Origin: Okeania sp.
Lineage (GTDB): Bacteria; Cyanobacteriota; Cyanobacteriia; Cyanobacteriales; Microcoleaceae
Direction: 5' to 3'
Assembly (NCBI RefSeq): GCF_035285525.1
Contig: NZ_JAYKGW010000249.1
Coordinates: 1 to 10,602 of the forward strand
DNA length: 10,602 nucleotides
Numbering within the stretch: position 1 is the first letter of the stretch; each line of letters starts with the position of its first letter. Shown here piece by piece: positions 1 through 8,094 of the stretch. Both the position numbers and the translations under genes were made by a program. The notes beneath the pieces were generated by a model that saw nothing but the letters and a program-made list of their open reading frames with translations, had not been told where the DNA came from and made no database searches.

Positions 1-220
1 GTTAAAACCCGCAAGGGCGGGTTGATATAAGTTTGAGAATAGGTATGAAAATTTTAGTTAAAACCCGCAAGGGCGGGTTGATATAAGTTTGAGAATAGGT
101 ATGAAAATTTTAGTTAAAACCCGCCCCTACTATAAATAATTATTCATTGAAGTGAAAGGGCGGGTTGATATAAGTTTGAGAGTAGGTATGAAAATTTTAG
201 TTAAAACCCGCCCCTACTAT
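1..220. repeat. Tandem 56-bp repeat truncated by the window edge. Units lie at 1-56 and 57-112 (identical), and a third unit at 113-198 is split by a 33-bp insertion. A partial fourth unit lies at 199-220.
   Basis: Units 1-56 and 57-112 match exactly. Each unit carries the hairpin AACCCGC-AAGG-GCGGGTT. In the third unit the hairpin loop is replaced by 33 bp (125-157). The string GTTAAAACCCGCCCCTACTAT recurs at 113-133 and 199-219. Confidence 0.9.
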
Positions 221-667
221 TTCCATACTCTTTCTTTCCTTTACTTCTTCATAGAGTAGTTGACTTCGTGAATCTATAATCTAAAATAGAAAATATACAA
301 ATAGCTCGTATCAAGAAACCAACAAATTTGATTGTTAGGTAAAAATACTTGCTTGCTAAATTTTTTTTCAGCTCATCTTTGAGGGAAAGGTTTTAGGGAA
401 TATCAGAAAAAATGGCATTGGTGAATGAAGGGGTAAAATTTAAGTTTTTATTATTAAGAAACTGAGTTTATTGGAAATAGATGTATATTCAGTAATTAAC
501 AATTATATAGTTATGCCTTCTTAAAAGAATGGAATTTACTCAAAGGAAAGTTTTAGATTTATCCTATTTTTAGGACAAGCTTTGAACCTAAATTTTTGAA
601 TTATTTACATTATTAATTCTTGGGTAAAATATCCAATACCAAACCAGCTTATAAACCTTATAAAAAC

Positions 668-1760: not shown

Positions 1761-1929
1761 GTAAGCATTCGGCTATTAGCAGTCAGTTCAAGTGCAATCA
1801 AAACGAATGAAGCAAGGGATCTTTTAACTTCTACTTTTGAACCATATATCTCACTCGATAAAACTATGTATATTTGTCAGAAATTATAGATTTACCTTAA
1901 AAGCTAATAGCTGACTGCTGAATGCTTAC
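1761..1929 (+). mobile_element. MITE-like small repeat element, copy R, with terminal inverted repeats
   Basis: GTAAGCATTC (1761-1770) pairs perfectly with GAATGCTTAC (1920-1929). AGCAGTCAG (1778-1786) pairs with CTGACTGCT (1911-1919). The element begins 10 nt after the stop codon of the 259-aa ORF. Confidence 0.6.
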
Positions 1930-2057
1930 GATAATAATTTTCAGTAAACTAAATTATTTATGTTATGCTTTTTTAATAAAAATTGACCTAATTCAAAAAA
2001 AAATCTTTATAAGAATGATTATTGTCTGATACAATTCATATTGATTGTTAGTAGATC

Positions 2058-2073
2058 GACTATCGAGATAGTC
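2058..2073. promoter_or_regulatory. Perfect palindrome GACTATC-GA-GATAGTC, operator-like, 115 bp upstream of the 196-aa gene
   Basis: 7-bp perfect inverted-repeat arms with a 2-bp spacer. TTGATT lies immediately upstream at 2041-2046. Confidence 0.35.
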
Positions 2074-2188
2074 CATGTTAAATATATAAAGATTTTTAGT
2101 TATGAACATGACTATTTTAGAAGTTTTTACTACAAGGTTTTTGCTAGTGTAAAATATACTGAATTAATAAAATTAAGAAGAGGAACTA

Positions 2189-2779
2189 ATGACAGAAATT
2201 TCAACTGAACAAATGCTTTATTTGCTTTATACATTCGCTTATTCAACAGAGGGAACAGTAACTAAAGGAAATGTCAAGATTAATTTAGCTAAATTATCGA
2301 AAGAATATGGCAAAAATGCAGCACAAATTTGTGAAAGTTTATTTGAAAAGGGATTATTGGAGTCTCCGAAAAGACATAGAATTAGAATGACTGAGATGGG
2401 TATGGAAGTTCTGGTTATTAATCTGCAAAGAACTGAATATGAGTTTACCTCTGTTAAAGGACCTAAAATTTTAAATGCTTTGATGTCTTGTTTGAAGTTA
2501 GTTTCAAAGTATGGGGAAATAGATAAAAAGGTTGTAGATGAAGATATAGATTTTGAGACTTTTGTGGAAAAGTTTGAAAAGCTTTATTTTGAAGAAAGAA
2601 GGGTTCAAGAATTGCGGGGTATAGTTGTTATACGTAGTCAAGAAATCTGTCAAAAATTTATGGAGGAAAATAATATTTCTGAATCTAGTTTAAAGAAATA
2701 TTTTGAGAAATTAAAATCTGACGGTATTGTGTTTGCCGTAGTAGAAGATAATGAAGAACTTATAGAGTGGGTGGATTAA
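2189..2779 (+). CDS. Hypothetical protein with N- and C-terminal winged-helix-like segments; upstream partner of the NTPase gene
   Basis: A 196-aa ORF with the purine-rich SD-like GAAGAGGA at 2177-2184. Its stop (2777-2779) lies 4 nt before the next ATG, suggesting translational coupling. The segments NAAQICESLFEKGLLESPKRHRIRMTEMG and ICQKFMEENNISESSLKKYFEKLKSDGIVF look HTH/wing-like. Confidence 0.75.
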   Translation: MTEISTEQMLYLLYTFAYSTEGTVTKGNVKINLAKLSKEYGKNAAQICESLFEKGLLESPKRHRIRMTEMGMEVLVINLQRTEYEFTSVKGPKILNALMSCLKLVSKYGEIDKKVVDEDIDFETFVEKFEKLYFEERRVQELRGIVVIRSQEICQKFMEENNISESSLKKYFEKLKSDGIVFAVVEDNEELIEWVD

Positions 2780-2783
2780 AATT

Positions 2784-4697
2784 ATGCCAGAAGATTCAGG
2801 AAAGAAAAGAGTAATTAAAGACTTTCTTCAACGGATAAAAGAAGGAGAAGGTTTTATTGAAGATATTTGGATTGAACGTGATATTAGACCTCTTGGAAAA
2901 AATGATATTCTTTCAGATAATAGAAGTTTATGTTCAGCTAACAGTTTGTCTACAAGAGCAGTATCTAATATTACTGAGCTTCTTCAAGATGATATTCGTC
3001 ACACTTTTGAAGAAGGATATTTTACTGCTAGATTTGTTACTGCTGTTTTGGGTAGTGGCAAAACTTCATTACTAACTTATTTAGAACAACTAATTATCAA
3101 TAAACCTGATGATCAAAAAAATTATGTAGTTATTAGGTTTGGATTTGACTATTTATCAGCAACACCAATATCTAGCAATTACAGTTTTGAAGTCAAGTTT
3201 TACTGTTATATTTTAAGCAAAACTTTTTGGGAGTTAACACGAAATCAAGAATCATTAGCAAGAGATGAAGCTATAGAATTTCTCAAAGATTATGATGCAG
3301 ACAAAGCATTATTAGATAAACTCAATAGAAAGAAAATTGCTCGGGATAGTTTAGAAGGAAGTTTTTCGATGTTTTTTGTAAGTCTTGGTGTAGATTTAGG
3401 GAAACTATTTCTTAATCTAATATCCCGTATTAATCAAGTTTCTGCTGGATTTTCTTTTGCATATCTTATAGATGAATTAGATTCGTTAAAAACATCTGGT
3501 AATGAAATAGAAAATACTCAACTAATGTTGAAGGGTTTAATCAAGCGAATACCTGATGAATATAAGTCTAAAATTCCTCTACTAATTTATTTGGTAGGAA
3601 CCAGAAATAGAGTCAGTCAAATTATTGAAGGAAACTCTGTGTTAAAAAGCTTAATTGCGAAAAATTTAATATCTATTAGTATGGGTTTAGAAAAAGAGCA
3701 TCAAATAATTAGACAGAAAATAGATGAAAGGTTTAGAGGAGCATATCAGGGATATAAAGATTTTAATGTTGCTTGGCAAGAGGTTCAAAATATACCATTG
3801 AAATCTCCTATTGAACCTGCAAAAAATTTAAGGGCATTTTGTCAATATTATGGAGGAGAAGTCTTAAGAGTAAACGAAAAGTATTTTGCAGAAATGTCAG
3901 AACAAAAGTTTGAAGGTGATGCTCGTGGATTAGTTGAAGCAAAATGTCGAGAAAAATGGGGAAAATTTTTAAAACAGAAAGCATATACACTATTAACTTT
4001 TGACACTACAAACTCTATTCCAGGTAAAAAAACAGGAAAAAATCACGCTTTAGATTGTTATGTAGAATTACGTCATAATGGTACACAAGTAGCTAGAGGT
4101 TTTGGTGAGGCAAAAAATTATGAATTGTTGAGTTCTCACTTACAAATATTTAGTGATTGGTTAGATGATTTTGAATTTAATCCATATCCTTTGGATAATA
4201 CTCCTCCAGACTTAGCTTTTATGATTGCTCCTTCATGTCCGTCACTTTTAGCAAAAAAGTTAAAGTCGAAAAATATTGAATTTATTGAAGCAGATAAAGA
4301 ACTATCACCTCCAACAAATAAACTAAGTCCACCACCTGAAATGAATATCAACATTTCTGGTCAAGAAAAATCACAACTTATACTACCTACTCCAACTTCA
4401 AAACCTGAAATTAATACCAACATTTCTGGTGAAAAAGAAACACCTCCACCAACTTCAATACTTTCAAAAACTGGAATTAATATTAATACAGCAAATGAAT
4501 CAGAATTAAGAACTGCCTTTAGAGGTTCTGGTGTCAAGAAAACAACTATTCAAAAGCTAATAAAAAATAGAGAAAGTAATCATTATAAAGATTTAGCTCA
4601 TCTTGTATCCGATATGAGATTTACCAACAATGTAAAAGCTAAACTTCAAGAAAAACTTGATAAAAGAGAAATTTGCTTCTCAACCAGAAACTATTAA
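2784..4697 (+). CDS. P-loop NTPase (AAA/ATPase_2-like) fused to a candidate PD-(D/E)xK nuclease-like domain, a Pro-rich repeat linker and a degenerate ComEA-like HhH tail
   Basis: Walker A is AVLGSGKT (aa 87-94, nt 3042-3065). Walker B is FAYLIDELD (aa 225-233, nt 3456-3482). A sensor-1-like strand is PLLIYLVGTRN. The candidate nuclease motif is D424-x17-E442-A-K444 (nt 4053-4115). The tail is ININTANESEL...LQEKL (nt 4476-4680). A GGTGGA SD lies 8 nt upstream of the ATG. Confidence 0.85.
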   Translation: MPEDSGKKRVIKDFLQRIKEGEGFIEDIWIERDIRPLGKNDILSDNRSLCSANSLSTRAVSNITELLQDDIRHTFEEGYFTARFVTAVLGSGKTSLLTYLEQLIINKPDDQKNYVVIRFGFDYLSATPISSNYSFEVKFYCYILSKTFWELTRNQESLARDEAIEFLKDYDADKALLDKLNRKKIARDSLEGSFSMFFVSLGVDLGKLFLNLISRINQVSAGFSFAYLIDELDSLKTSGNEIENTQLMLKGLIKRIPDEYKSKIPLLIYLVGTRNRVSQIIEGNSVLKSLIAKNLISISMGLEKEHQIIRQKIDERFRGAYQGYKDFNVAWQEVQNIPLKSPIEPAKNLRAFCQYYGGEVLRVNEKYFAEMSEQKFEGDARGLVEAKCREKWGKFLKQKAYTLLTFDTTNSIPGKKTGKNHALDCYVELRHNGTQVARGFGEAKNYELLSSHLQIFSDWLDDFEFNPYPLDNTPPDLAFMIAPSCPSLLAKKLKSKNIEFIEADKELSPPTNKLSPPPEMNINISGQEKSQLILPTPTSKPEINTNISGEKETPPPTSILSKTGININTANESELRTAFRGSGVKKTTIQKLIKNRESNHYKDLAHLVSDMRFTNNVKAKLQEKLDKREICFSTRNY

Positions 4698-5095
4698 AAA
4701 ACGACTAACAAAAATTTGGCATTATGAAAAATATAACATGACTTTCTCAGAAGGCGATCGCTACTTCTATTTAAGATAAAAATGAAATTATCTTTAATTA
4801 TCTGACAGAAACTTCCTAACCAGAAACCATCAAAAAAACGACTAACAAAAATTTGGCATTATGAAAAATATAACATGACTTTCTCAGAAGGCGATCACTA
4901 CTTCTATTTAAGATAAAAATGAAATTATCTTTAATTATCTGACAGAAACTTCCTAACCAGAAACTATTAAAAAACGACTAACAAAAATCTGGCATTATGA
5001 AAAATATAACATGACTTTCCGAGAAGGCGATCGCTACTTCTATTTTAAAAATGATGGTTGACAAAATTCAAGTATTTGATAGATATTACTTACTC
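4682..5095 (+). pseudogene. Three tandem diverged pseudo-copies of an internal segment of the downstream prolyl oligopeptidase gene, equivalent to nt ~5477-5650. A is 4682-4817, B is 4818-4954, C is 4955-~5095.
   Basis: Direct alignment by eye. Copies A and C translate as PETIKKRLTKIWHYEKYNMTF(S/R)EGDRYFY, against ETIKKRLTKIWDYEKYSVPFREGDRYFYF in the intact gene. The period is 136-137 bp. Stops and a 1-nt insertion in copy B break the frame. Confidence 0.9.
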
Positions 5096-5138
5096 TTGAA
5101 TAAAAATTAATAGCTGCATTTTACAAGTCAGGTGTCTA

Positions 5139-5300
5139 GAAAAAATATCTTGAGCAGCTAATAAAAAAAGAGAAAAAATTCCGACAAAGATTGAACTTAT
5201 CCAGGTATCTGACCTCAAAAATACCAAAAACAAACCCCAGCAAAAAAAACAAGAAGTAAAACTGCAAGAAAAACTTGATAAAGGCGAAATTTGTTTCTAA
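5139..5300 (+). pseudogene. Decayed relic of a second copy of the NTPase/HhH protein C-terminus, ending ...VSDLKN...KLQEKLDKGEICF*
   Basis: Positions 5262-5300 (CTGCAAGAAAAACTTGATAAAGGCGAAATTTGTTTCTAA) parallel 4646-4680 of the intact ORF. GCTAATAAAAAAAGAGAAA parallels GCTAATAAAAAATAGAGAAA. An in-frame TGA at 5151 and frame breaks lie upstream. Confidence 0.7.
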
Positions 5301-5331
5301 AATTAAATCAACTATTCACAAATAAAAAAAT

Positions 5332-7440
5332 ATGAAATATCCCAAACAACCTCTAACATATCCTGTCACTGAAAAAACAGACACAACAGAAAATTATCAC
5401 GGTATTCAAGTTCCCGATCCTTATAGATGGTTAGAAGAACCAGACTCAGAAAAAACTCAAGATTGGATAAAATCTCAGAACGAAATTACCTTTAATTATC
5501 TGACAGAAATTTCCGAACGAGAAACCATCAAAAAACGACTAACAAAAATCTGGGATTATGAAAAATATAGCGTTCCTTTCCGAGAAGGCGATCGCTACTT
5601 CTATTTTAAAAATGATGGTCTACAAAATCAAAGTATTTTATATACTTTACCTACCCTAGATGCAGAACCAAAAGTTCTCATCGACCCCAACAAATTATCA
5701 GAAGATGGAACAGTCGCTCTTTCTAGAATTTCCATTAGTAATGATGGTAAATTAATCGCCTATGGTATCTCTAAATCTGGTTCAGACTGGCAAGAATGGC
5801 GCATCAAAAATATTGAAACAGGAGAAGATTTGCCAGATATTTTGCAATGGATAAAATTTAATCAACCAACTTGGAAAAATGATAATCAAGGATTGTTTTA
5901 TAGTCGCTACGAACAACCACAAAAAAAAGAATTAGAAGAAACTAATTATTTGCAAAAAGTTTACTATCATACTTTAGGTACTGCTCAAAATGATGATGTA
6001 CTTATCTATGAAAAACCAGACCAAAAAGAATGGTTATTTAATTGTTCTGTGACAGATGATGGCAAATATTTGATTTTGGTAATTAGTCAAAGTACAGAAA
6101 ACAAAAACTTAGTTTTCTACAAAGATTTAACCATACCAAACTCCCCAATAGTAGAACTAATTAGTGAATTTGAAGCACAATATAGTCTGATAGATAATGA
6201 TAATAATATCTTTTGGTTTGTCACAGATTTTAATGCTCCGAAAAAACGAGTTATTGCTATAGATATAAATAACCCCCCATCTCCTTCCTTAGTCACAGGA
6301 AAAAATAAAGATGAATGGCAAGAAATTATTCCCGAAACAACAGATACATTGATAGGAGTAAACATACTTAATAATCAGTTCGTTGCTTTCTATTTAAAAG
6401 ATGCTCATACTCAAATAAAAATCTTAAATCTTGATGGTTCTCCAGTCAGAAATGTAGACTTACCTGGTATTGGTTCCGTAGGTGGTTTTCATGGCAAACG
6501 TTACGACAAAACCACATTTTATAGTTATGTTAGTTTCACAACTCCCTCAACTATTTATCAGTACGATATGGTGACAGGTGAAAGTAAAATTTATCGTCAA
6601 TCAAACGTAGATTTTCATCCCGATGAATTTGAAACCAAGCAAATTTTTTATAATAGTAAAGATGGTACAAAAATTCCCATGTTTATTATTCATAAAAAAG
6701 GTATCAAACTAGATAGCAATAACCCAACTATTCTTTACGGATATGGAGGATTTAATATTTCTATAACTCCCAGCTTTTCTATTAGTAGATTAGTCTGGTT
6801 AGAGATGGGAGGAGTTTATGCCATAGCCAATATTCGTGGAGGTGGAGAATATGGTGAAGAGTGGCATCAAGCAGGAACAAAACAACAGAAACAAAATGTA
6901 TTTGATGACTTTATTAGTGCTGCTGAGTGGTTGATAGAAAATAACTTTACTTCCTCAAAAAGATTAGCTATTAAAGGAGGTAGTAATGGTGGTTTATTAG
7001 TGGGTGCTTGTATTACTCAAAGACCAGAATTATTTGGTGCTGCTTTACCCGCAGTAGGAGTATTAGATATGTTACGTTTCCATAAATTTACTATTGGTTG
7101 GGCCTGGGTTTCTGATTATGGTTCTCCAGATAATCCAGAAGATTTTAAAGCTTTATATGCTTATTCTCCTCTACATAATTTAAAGTCAAAAATATCTTAT
7201 CCTCCAACTTTTGTTACTACTGCTGACCATGATGATCGAGTTGTTCCAGCTCATAGTTTTAAGTTTATTTCTGCTTTACAAGAAGTTCATCTTGGAGATA
7301 ATCCGGTGTTAATTAGAATTGAAACTAAAGCTGGTCATGGAGCAGGAAAACCTACTACGAAAATAATAGAAGAAATTACTGATGAATTTGCTTTTTTGCT
7401 GAGGAATTTTGAAATAGAATTACCTGAAAATTTTCAGTAA
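5332..7440 (+). CDS. Prolyl oligopeptidase (prolyl endopeptidase), peptidase family S9A
   Basis: A 702-aa ORF with the N-terminal YHGIQVPDPYRWLE motif and a beta-propeller-length middle region. The catalytic motifs are GGSNGG (Ser codon 6982-6984), ADHDDRVVP and KAGHGAGKP. Confidence 0.95.
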   Translation: MKYPKQPLTYPVTEKTDTTENYHGIQVPDPYRWLEEPDSEKTQDWIKSQNEITFNYLTEISERETIKKRLTKIWDYEKYSVPFREGDRYFYFKNDGLQNQSILYTLPTLDAEPKVLIDPNKLSEDGTVALSRISISNDGKLIAYGISKSGSDWQEWRIKNIETGEDLPDILQWIKFNQPTWKNDNQGLFYSRYEQPQKKELEETNYLQKVYYHTLGTAQNDDVLIYEKPDQKEWLFNCSVTDDGKYLILVISQSTENKNLVFYKDLTIPNSPIVELISEFEAQYSLIDNDNNIFWFVTDFNAPKKRVIAIDINNPPSPSLVTGKNKDEWQEIIPETTDTLIGVNILNNQFVAFYLKDAHTQIKILNLDGSPVRNVDLPGIGSVGGFHGKRYDKTTFYSYVSFTTPSTIYQYDMVTGESKIYRQSNVDFHPDEFETKQIFYNSKDGTKIPMFIIHKKGIKLDSNNPTILYGYGGFNISITPSFSISRLVWLEMGGVYAIANIRGGGEYGEEWHQAGTKQQKQNVFDDFISAAEWLIENNFTSSKRLAIKGGSNGGLLVGACITQRPELFGAALPAVGVLDMLRFHKFTIGWAWVSDYGSPDNPEDFKALYAYSPLHNLKSKISYPPTFVTTADHDDRVVPAHSFKFISALQEVHLGDNPVLIRIETKAGHGAGKPTTKIIEEITDEFAFLLRNFEIELPENFQ

Positions 7441-8094
7441 GTATTTTCTGTAATGCTACGGAAACAGCTTTTTTATAAATGAAATAAGCATTAGTTTAAT
7501 TTCTACTTTCATAATGATGGAAAAATGCTTCTTTACTTCTCTATTTTTCAGATTAAAATCCCATTTTTTCCATCATTAAATATTTCTATCAATACCTTGC
7601 TTACTAAAAACTATAAACATTTTCATTCTCTGAGCTTCCCAAAAAAAATCGCCCTTGACGGGATTATCGGTTGCATTCTTACTAAAATTGTGATACTATC
7701 TATTTAAATGGGTTTATGTGCCCATATACATGATTTTTTATTCAACTAAAAAATCAGAAATTTTCTCATTATCTCTAGTGAATAATTTTTTTTGCTTAAA
7801 ACTATATATTTTGAGAGATTATTATAATTTCACCAAAAAATTTATCTCAACTAATACATAATTTTGCGGAATAGTAAAGGTAACTTATGTAGAGAAAAAT
7901 CGAAGAAACCTAAAGCTATTTTGATAACTAAGTTTCAGCTTTTGTGTACTCAATCAAAAAAAATTTTAATTTGCTTTAAAAAAAATTAGAGCTATGTAAC
8001 AATCCAAAAATTGGCTGATGTTAACTTTATACATAAAAACTTTACTTTATTATAATCAAAAATTGCTTATTCTCAAGTAAAAACATTAATTCCA

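Follow-up and report, generated by a model that had tools for sequence, protein, structure and literature searches.

A tandem array built in part from a neighbouring gene is known from Trichodesmium erythraeum IMS101, where seven units lie by Tery_0080 and each unit holds a duplicated part of that gene (Pfreundt et al. 2014, PMC4143802). The Trichodesmium units are 736–973 bp long and mostly of unknown origin, with the gene fragment on the strand opposite the transcript; a transcription start site (TSS) was mapped in each unit, and the array yields the most abundant RNA of the cell (PMC4143802).

Here we describe an array of 137-nt units in Okeania sp. (NCBI RefSeq assembly GCF_035285525.1, contig NZ_JAYKGW010000249.1). 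It lies between a gene that we call G1 and the gene for prolyl oligopeptidase (POP), and its units are copies of an internal segment of POP. The DNA analysed (the window) is one whole contig of 10,602 bp from a short-read metagenome-assembled genome (MAG) with a GC content of ~30%; positions are those of the window unless a gene or another locus is named. The array shares with the Trichodesmium one the cyanobacterial family, the intergenic location and units with part of an adjoining gene, but its units are only 137 nt long, are wholly gene-derived and show no promoter signal. A unit of the Trichodesmium type joins part of the neighbouring gene to a longer stretch that came from elsewhere; the window unit is POP sequence throughout. 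The array is very probably a non-functional, neutral scar of a local duplication.

An array of pseudo-copies of a POP segment

The program TRF reported a single array at 4682–5045, with a period of 137, 2.7 copies (a copy number as assembled from short reads), 95% matches and a score of 677. Direct-repeat families D1 and D2 were also detected, and the copies stand head-to-tail in the same orientation as POP. The original prediction, made from the window sequence without database searches, had divided the region into three units, A (4682–4817), B (4818–4954) and C (4955 to ~5095), and had derived them from an internal part of the peptidase gene. The unit boundaries fit the TRF array, and alignment confirms the origin: BLAST matched 4918–5099 (the end of B, copy C and the tail that follows it) to 5479–5660 of the gene, 561 nt downstream, at 87.4% identity without gaps and with a significant E-value (1.8e-61), while 4781–4922 matched 5479–5615 at 86.6% and 4682–4785 matched 5516–5615 at 85.6%. 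Copy C reads on into gene homology, as had been claimed, as far as ~5657. Array and tail together represent nt 146–326 of the gene; the source, nt 5479–5660, corresponds to codons 50–110 in the N-terminal propeller domain.

The units are dead, non-coding copies under no coding constraint, since they carry in-frame stops, their length is not a multiple of three and their differences from the gene are spread evenly over codon positions. When the units are read in frame with POP, the TCC GAA of the gene is replaced by TCC TAA in all of them, and copy C contains four in-frame stops; with units of 136–137 nt the frame is lost. Copy C and the gene differ at 23 of 182 positions, with 6, 9 and 8 differences at codon positions 1, 2 and 3. 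Exactly eight of the differences fall within 4955–5054, where about eight over ~100 nt had been counted before, and five of the eight are in the codons for D-Y and S-V-P. Copy C also shares an exact block of 44 nt with the gene. The fusion of the array to the upstream open reading frame (ORF) was correctly recognized as well: the ORF 2784–4697 terminates 16 nt into copy A, and its last five codons, STRNY and the stop, are array-derived.

The unit consists of 133 nt of POP and 4 nt at the junction. The junction between units, TATTTAAGATAAAAATGAAATTATC, can be aligned in two ways, either as a microhomology of AAAAATGA with a 4-nt insertion or as a unit that starts at gene nt 5466 and has lost 7 nt; the short homology previously proposed for this junction is thus plausible without being the unique solution.

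Identities of the copies to the gene are 88–91%, and those among the copies are 92–97%. A and B share three changes without a counterpart in C (AAATTTGG, TCTCAG); only four positions distinguish the two, three of them within a patch, ACCATC plus an A, in B. On these sequence relationships A and B appear to be the youngest pair and C the least derived unit: the changes shared by A and B and the graded identities suggest that a C-like fragment came first, then the A/B type, then the duplication that separated A from B. The copy nearest to the gene is indeed the most gene-like, and the reason would be that, of the three units, C is the least derived and has the unamplified tail attached.

The ACCATC of B is found in the gene too, with ACTATT in A and C, exactly as the original prediction had it. 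ACCATC is the derived state of the live gene, orthologues reading ACTATT or ACTATC. The gene and the copies have probably exchanged short gene-conversion tracts, to judge from the patch in B and the 44-nt block in C.

To place the copies relative to POP evolution we used the orthologues of three loci: L001 and L002, both Trichodesmium-like, with protein identities of 86% and 84%, and L083 (Okeania SIO2F4), with an identity of 90% at the nucleotide level. Relative to these, the copies and the window POP have derived states in common, namely ACAAAA (against ACTCAA), CTGACAG and, in C, CCGAG. The copies also keep ancestral states that the live gene has since lost (AAT, ACTATT, GGTT.A and ACTCTT). 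This mixture of shared derived and retained ancestral states suggests that the copies split from the POP of the window lineage part-way along its own branch.

A second pseudo-copy and the probable origin of the spacer

The original prediction overlooked X′, a stretch between the array and POP that aligns with X, the 3′ end of G1, at 68% identity over 208 columns with seven gaps (E 1.3e-12). X′ is a copy of ~190 nt at the 3′ end of G1 in which the frame is broken by gaps; it ends in AAACTTGATAAAGGCGAAATTTGTTTCTAA, reading KLDKGEICF and a stop. The ~650 nt at 4682–5331 are therefore fully local, composed of POP nt 146–326 (2.7 times, plus the tail), X′ and a native intergenic region of 30 nt. 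The pieces follow one another in the order G1 ending in X, then A, B and C with the tail, X′, the 30-nt intergenic region and POP, and the ORFs of both G1 and POP are full length.

This layout is the one that a tandem duplication with a unit reaching from inside G1 to inside POP would produce, as such an event leaves the flanking genes whole and puts between them first a 5′ piece of POP and then a 3′ piece of G1. Once X′ is recognized, the odd array of internal gene fragments becomes the expected middle of a boundary-spanning tandem duplication. Similarity is present at the junctions of the pieces: TGA where the tail of C meets X′, CTTC..A where X meets A, and AAAAATGA between units. These similarities are short, and in AT-rich DNA chance could yield them.

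Tandem duplication followed by decay, through microhomology, unequal recombination and deletion, is a general route of bacterial genome evolution, and most bacterial tandem duplications are large, unstable and soon lost. The history that we infer for the window lineage would have started with a tandem duplication of ~544 bp (188 + 30 + 326), from G1 nt ~4496 over the 30-nt intergenic gap to POP nt ~326, which would have kept the left G1 and the right POP intact around a redundant middle, a POP 5′ fragment and then a G1 3′ fragment. Next, the pseudo-intergenic region would have been lost by deletion, along with ~184 nt at the start of the pseudo-POP, so that the end of G1 became joined to the fragment at TTCTCA/ACCAG, where CTTCTCA and CTTCCTA resemble each other over a short length. 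Head-to-tail copying of a 133–137-nt stretch of the POP fragment would have created the junction TATTTAAGATAAAAATGAAATTATC, a recent further duplication of the unit would have given A and B, and short gene-conversion patches would then have been swapped with the live POP. X′ would have drifted, with its last ~40 nt kept, probably for the POP promoter.

The locus has several properties of a typical boundary-spanning tandem duplication: adjacent head-to-tail copies in the same orientation, intact flanking genes, the predicted order of pieces, neutral-looking decay and, unless due to chance, short similarity at the junctions. It differs from the typical bacterial tandem duplication in being small, in having persisted to 12–30% divergence and in having been re-amplified into a 137-nt array. 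Three origins had been offered for the array, and the scar of slipped or illegitimate recombination fits best; serial integration is not supported, as inverted repeats and foreign DNA are missing from the spacer and the window has neither an integrase nor a transposase gene.

The same spacer in related genomes

We compared 11 related loci for the array (L001–L004, L082–L086, L089 and L091), and the POP-derived array is absent from all of them. The comparison of the locus between genomes, recommended in the original prediction, was informative in another way: L083 and L086 carry other duplications of the same boundary. In L083 (Okeania SIO2F4) a separate duplication of ~700 bp spans the G1/POP boundary and contains an internal deletion (4720–5177). 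The order there is G1, X, pseudo-intergenic region, the start of a pseudo-POP (MKHSK and a stop), POP nt 472–569 (84% identical to its own gene), X′, intergenic region and POP; the junction of POP with X′ (at POP nt 569) is unlike that of the window. L086, an uncultured genome from an ENA metagenome assembly (POP 87% amino acid identity), has 2.3 copies of a 325-nt unit (6083–6824), which opens with the tail of G1, followed by the intergenic region and by ~30 nt from the start of POP. In the last of these copies an ORF of 75 aa (6749–6976) starts with the first POP codons, a possible newborn small ORF. A deletion was observed in L002 (Trichodesmium sp. MAG_R03; 7900–8010), where the homologue of the 196-aa gene is joined, from its middle, to POP codon ~7; G1, the spacer and the POP start were taken out.

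A different repeat, which extends from the stop codon of G1 to a point ~70 nt short of the POP ATG, occupies the spacer in L001, L082, L084, L085, L089/L090 and L091. The hosts of this satellite include Trichodesmium-like MAG08, several Okeania (SIO3I5 and SIO2C9 among them) and Dapis BLCC M172. Its units are 136–137 nt long, with short variants of 89–101 nt, and stand on the + strand only, in 3 to ~17 copies (L001:5543–7928; L082:9892–10336; L084:9820–10555; L085:6145–6930; L089:4665–6930; L090:2–150; L091:6832–6920); contigs L082, L084 and L091 end within the satellite array. The satellite was found nowhere else in the 96 loci compared, has no Rfam match and was not found described in the literature searched. 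A promoter within the satellite unit (TTGAAA...TAGAAAT) was considered and is not supported, the scan of L001 giving 4 sites where 11.7 were expected.

The satellite and the window array have the locus, the strand and the 136–137-nt period in common. They differ in that no sequence similarity is detectable between them and in that the satellite is kept across genera, whereas the window array is POP-derived and belongs to this genome only. BLAST of the satellite unit against the window found nothing; Smith–Waterman scores of the satellite against the window unit, the G1 3′ end and the POP 5′ end were at shuffle level (z ≤ 2); and an nhmmer profile of 31 satellite units gave no match in 4682–5331 and nothing significant in the window, L083 or L086. 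The only hints of homology of the satellite are a weak nhmmer match of its 3′ half to the end of G1 in L091 (E 0.0017) and a 27-nt resemblance at the left edge of the array.

Other long intergenic arrays were observed in the same genomes (L082:876–2268 and L083:7445–8035, with units of 75–77 nt and 145 nt), which shows that array formation is common in them.

A candidate POP promoter in X′

Just upstream of POP there is a promoter-like element with the layout ACTTGATAA, 17 nt, TAAGAT or TAAAAT, and TAAATCAACCATTCACAAATCAAAAAT/ATG, ending 27–28 nt 5′ of the POP ATG. We compared it in six genomes with an intact spacer (the window, L001, L083, L085, L086 and L089). Five of the six keep both hexamers and their distance of 17 nt, L086 having the weaker TGGATA/TCTGAT, and the 17 nt in between have diverged, from G1-like (GGCGAAATTTGTTTC) to unrecognizable (AAAATCCAATCAACTTC). 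From this pattern of conservation, a sigma-70-type footprint, the TTGATA-17-TAAAAT element of the window is probably the POP promoter.

The element sits in the family-typical C-terminus of G1, EICF and a stop. The POP promoter may thus once have overlapped the last G1 codons, in which case, after a duplication or insertion, the promoter would have stayed with the POP-proximal copy and the coding function with the one attached to G1. In the window, the G1-attached copy reads TCAACC at the −10 position, so that promoter activity directed into the array is not expected.

Alternative explanations

The diagnostic sites conflict as to the chronology of the X/X′ duplication, some pointing to a lineage-specific and others to an ancient event. 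In favour of the former, the left 100 nt of X′ contain GGTGT and AATAAAAAA, derived states that are common only to the G1 genes of the window and of its closest relative, L082. Several observations weigh against the history proposed above. The window, L083 and the genomes with the satellite all have TTCTAA in X′, while live G1 genes have TTCTCA or TTCTCT, and the X′ sequences of the window and L083 also have GGC and AAC in common; such shared states could reflect an older, common duplication of the G1 tail, followed by new copying or by gene conversion. X and X′ are 68% identical and the POP copies and gene 87%, so that an equal age of X′ and the POP copies needs fast evolution of G1, which its identity of only 51–82% within Okeania makes plausible. 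The array and the unrelated satellite found at this site in relatives have one and the same period, and the neutrality of the array is itself something that we infer from absent signals.

An ancient X/X′ duplication, common to the whole clade of Okeania, Dapis and Trichodesmium-like genomes, with the POP fragment inserted or copied anew at a later time and kept similar to the gene by gene conversion, is a variant of the local-duplication scenario with another chronology, and we regard it as possible, with a real but minor share of the probability. It would explain why a G1-tail-like stretch with TTCTAA stands just 5′ of POP in six of six genomes, why GGC, TAA and AAC are common to X′ of the window and of L083, and why X′ still reads EICF and a stop at its end; the ACCATC patch of B and the exact block in C, which point to gene conversion, are also in line with it. 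It is harder to reconcile with the states restricted to the window and L082 and with the POP/X′ junctions, which differ between the window and L083, and the recurrent TAA is possibly convergent, as it turns the second base of the −10 hexamer into A (TCAGAT to TAAGAT).

The array might instead be an expressed locus, either a non-coding RNA gene with per-unit transcripts, like those of the Trichodesmium arrays, or a regulatory 3′ untranslated region or 5′ leader in which read-through titrates a factor that binds POP mRNA. Scanning revealed no terminator-like site in the interval from G1 to POP; passive transcription of the array, as read-through from G1, is therefore probable. All other results make a functional RNA unlikely. 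Promoter-like sites occur at chance level (5 found, 4.6 ± 2.8 expected); folds of A, B and C and of the reverse strand are no stabler than those of shuffled sequences (z −0.4 to +0.8); the whole window has no Rfam match at E ≤ 1; the unit is all POP and lacks an extra segment like the TSS-bearing one of Trichodesmium; and every relative examined is without the array. Moreover, the copies are sense to POP, so that +-strand array RNA cannot pair with POP mRNA. The suggestion in the original prediction that the array is a source of a POP-related RNA is not supported by these data.

We consider it very improbable that the array, or its copy number, is an artefact of short-read MAG assembly, for instance strain variants laid in tandem. 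The window is a whole MAG contig of 10.6 kb, the 137-nt unit is near the read length, A and B differ at just four positions, and the species is represented by one genome; exact-pattern scans of metagenome contigs for the unit junction and the pseudo-copy signature found nothing, exact-protein look-up of POP and of a 47-aa spacer ORF gave no record, and no second assembly of the array was found. Yet the junctions between units, between G1 and A, and between the tail of C and X′ are impossible to obtain from the gene alone, fixed substitutions separate the A/B-type from the C-type units, and comparable real rearrangements exist at the site in relatives. Further support comes from an independent Logan unitig of run SRR19514071, which matches 1821–4711 of the window at 100%, thus repeating the G1/A junction, and stops at 4711. 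Copies A and C share an exact 34-mer (4682–4715 = 4955–4988) with different left neighbours, so that a k=31 graph must branch at 4711 if A and C coexist; as the unitig ends at this branch point, the junction of G1 with copy A and at least two unit contexts are present in the reads. The array is real and lineage-specific, its exact copy number aside.

The common period of the window array and the satellite is probably a chance match, the 137 nt of the window looking accidental as the sum of 133 nt of POP and 4 nt at a junction. It is very improbable that a process or constraint in the G1–POP spacer of the Okeania/Dapis/Trichodesmium-like clade favours arrays with a period of 136–137 bp (~13 helical turns) whatever their sequence and that the window array is a functional replacement for a lost satellite; a phased DNA-binding protein (e.g. 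the adjacent helix-turn-helix (HTH) or helix-hairpin-helix (HhH) products) or a length-measured template switch may be named as candidates for such a constraint. Array formation as a general trait of the G1 family was rejected: in Planktothrix and Nostoc, G1 has no array and is followed by a convergent gene 150–350 nt downstream.

There is next to no chance that a dedicated element, such as a template of a diversity-generating retroelement (DGR), a CRISPR-like array or a mobile or integrative element with a gene fragment, made these repeated near-copies of part of a protein gene close to that gene, because the copy has A at only 4 of the 23 copy–gene mismatches, the target lies in the N-terminal propeller domain and not in a C-terminal variable region, and the spacer contains no unique spacers, 0 inverted repeats and no foreign DNA. 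The DGR candidate was rejected for want of a reverse transcriptase gene among the window ORFs and for mismatches that are not confined to adenines, and the CRISPR, miniature inverted-repeat transposable element and integrative-element candidates for want of an integrase or transposase gene, the sole match being an IS630 HTH-like one far below the cut-off (E 0.006).

Gene neighbourhood

The features of the window are collected in Table 1. The gene order PdxA, 259-aa protein, 191-aa protein, G1, POP is kept in Okeania and Dapis, and POP orthologues in Okeania and Trichodesmium-like genomes have 84–88% protein identity.

Table 1. Genes and spacer elements of the Okeania sp. window
Feature	Position	Strand	Basis
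HTH-like protein, 259 aa	972–1751	+	
Winged-helix-like protein, 196 aa	2189–2779	+	
G1, 637 aa, Walker-A-like GSGKTS, weak C-terminal HhH (ComEA-like) region	2784–4697	+	ORF list, Pfam
X, functional G1 3′ end, source of X′	4496–4683	+	Alignment to 5097–5301
Copy A, 136 nt, left-truncated, joined to G1 at TTCTCA/ACCAG	4682–4817	+	97.1% to B, 87.9% to gene
Copy B, 137 nt, gene-like ACCATC patch and one extra A	4818–4954	+	
Copy C and unamplified tail, homologous to gene 5516–5657	4955–5096	+	
X′, degenerate, frame-broken G1 3′-end pseudo-copy; joins POP-fragment tail at CTCTTGA/ATAAAA	5097–5301	+	
Promoter-like TTGATA-17 nt-TAAAAT inside X′ tail, 28 nt 5′ of POP ATG	5275–5303	+	Consensus scan, 10/12 matches
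Intact prolyl oligopeptidase (POP, S9), 702 aa	5332–7440	+	PF02897 3e-130, PF00326 6e-68

The G1 family is kept across filamentous cyanobacteria, and the majority of its members end in EICF and a stop. Its single family match is to Pfam HHH_3 (E 0.003), and nothing beyond this weak HhH match was found in Pfam, NCBIfam, PADLOC or PDB. G1 had been labelled an NTPase; the label has only the GSGKTS motif behind it, and no family model supports it. The gene of 191–196 aa for the winged-helix-like protein and G1, separated by a 4-nt gap, form a two-gene module that is kept in Okeania, Dapis, Planktothrix and Nostoc (window 2189–4697; L093–L096), and apart from the weak HhH match of G1 neither of the two has a family, defence-system or solved-structure match. 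G1 is split or degraded in L085 (341 + 185 aa) and in L001.

Repeats were also observed within G1 and at the edge of the window. The Pro/Ser/Thr-rich linker of G1 contains a coding tandem repeat of 57–69 nt just 5′ of the HhH region (window 4325–4443; L082:9533–9662; L084:9488–9600), the sequence and copy number of which vary among species. The contig begins within a 56-nt tandem repeat (window 1–230; 2.2 identical copies and a third, diverged copy at ~160–215) that contains the hairpin AACCCGC-AAG-GGCGGGTT and was seen in 0 of the 90 loci compared.

Implications

For annotation the result is a warning: the 634-nt 'intergenic' region between G1 and POP and the STRNY tail of G1 are products of duplication and not native. 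The probable promoter retained in X′ suggests that duplications separate the POP promoter from the end of the upstream coding region that it once overlapped.

At least three Okeania genomes have undergone independent rearrangements of the G1–POP boundary, and in six others it is filled with satellite; this makes it a natural hotspot at which to study the birth and loss of arrays. The array of the window is functionally minor; it provides a clean case, decomposable into its parts, of a small boundary duplication that persists, is trimmed and is re-amplified in polyploid, repeat-rich cyanobacteria.

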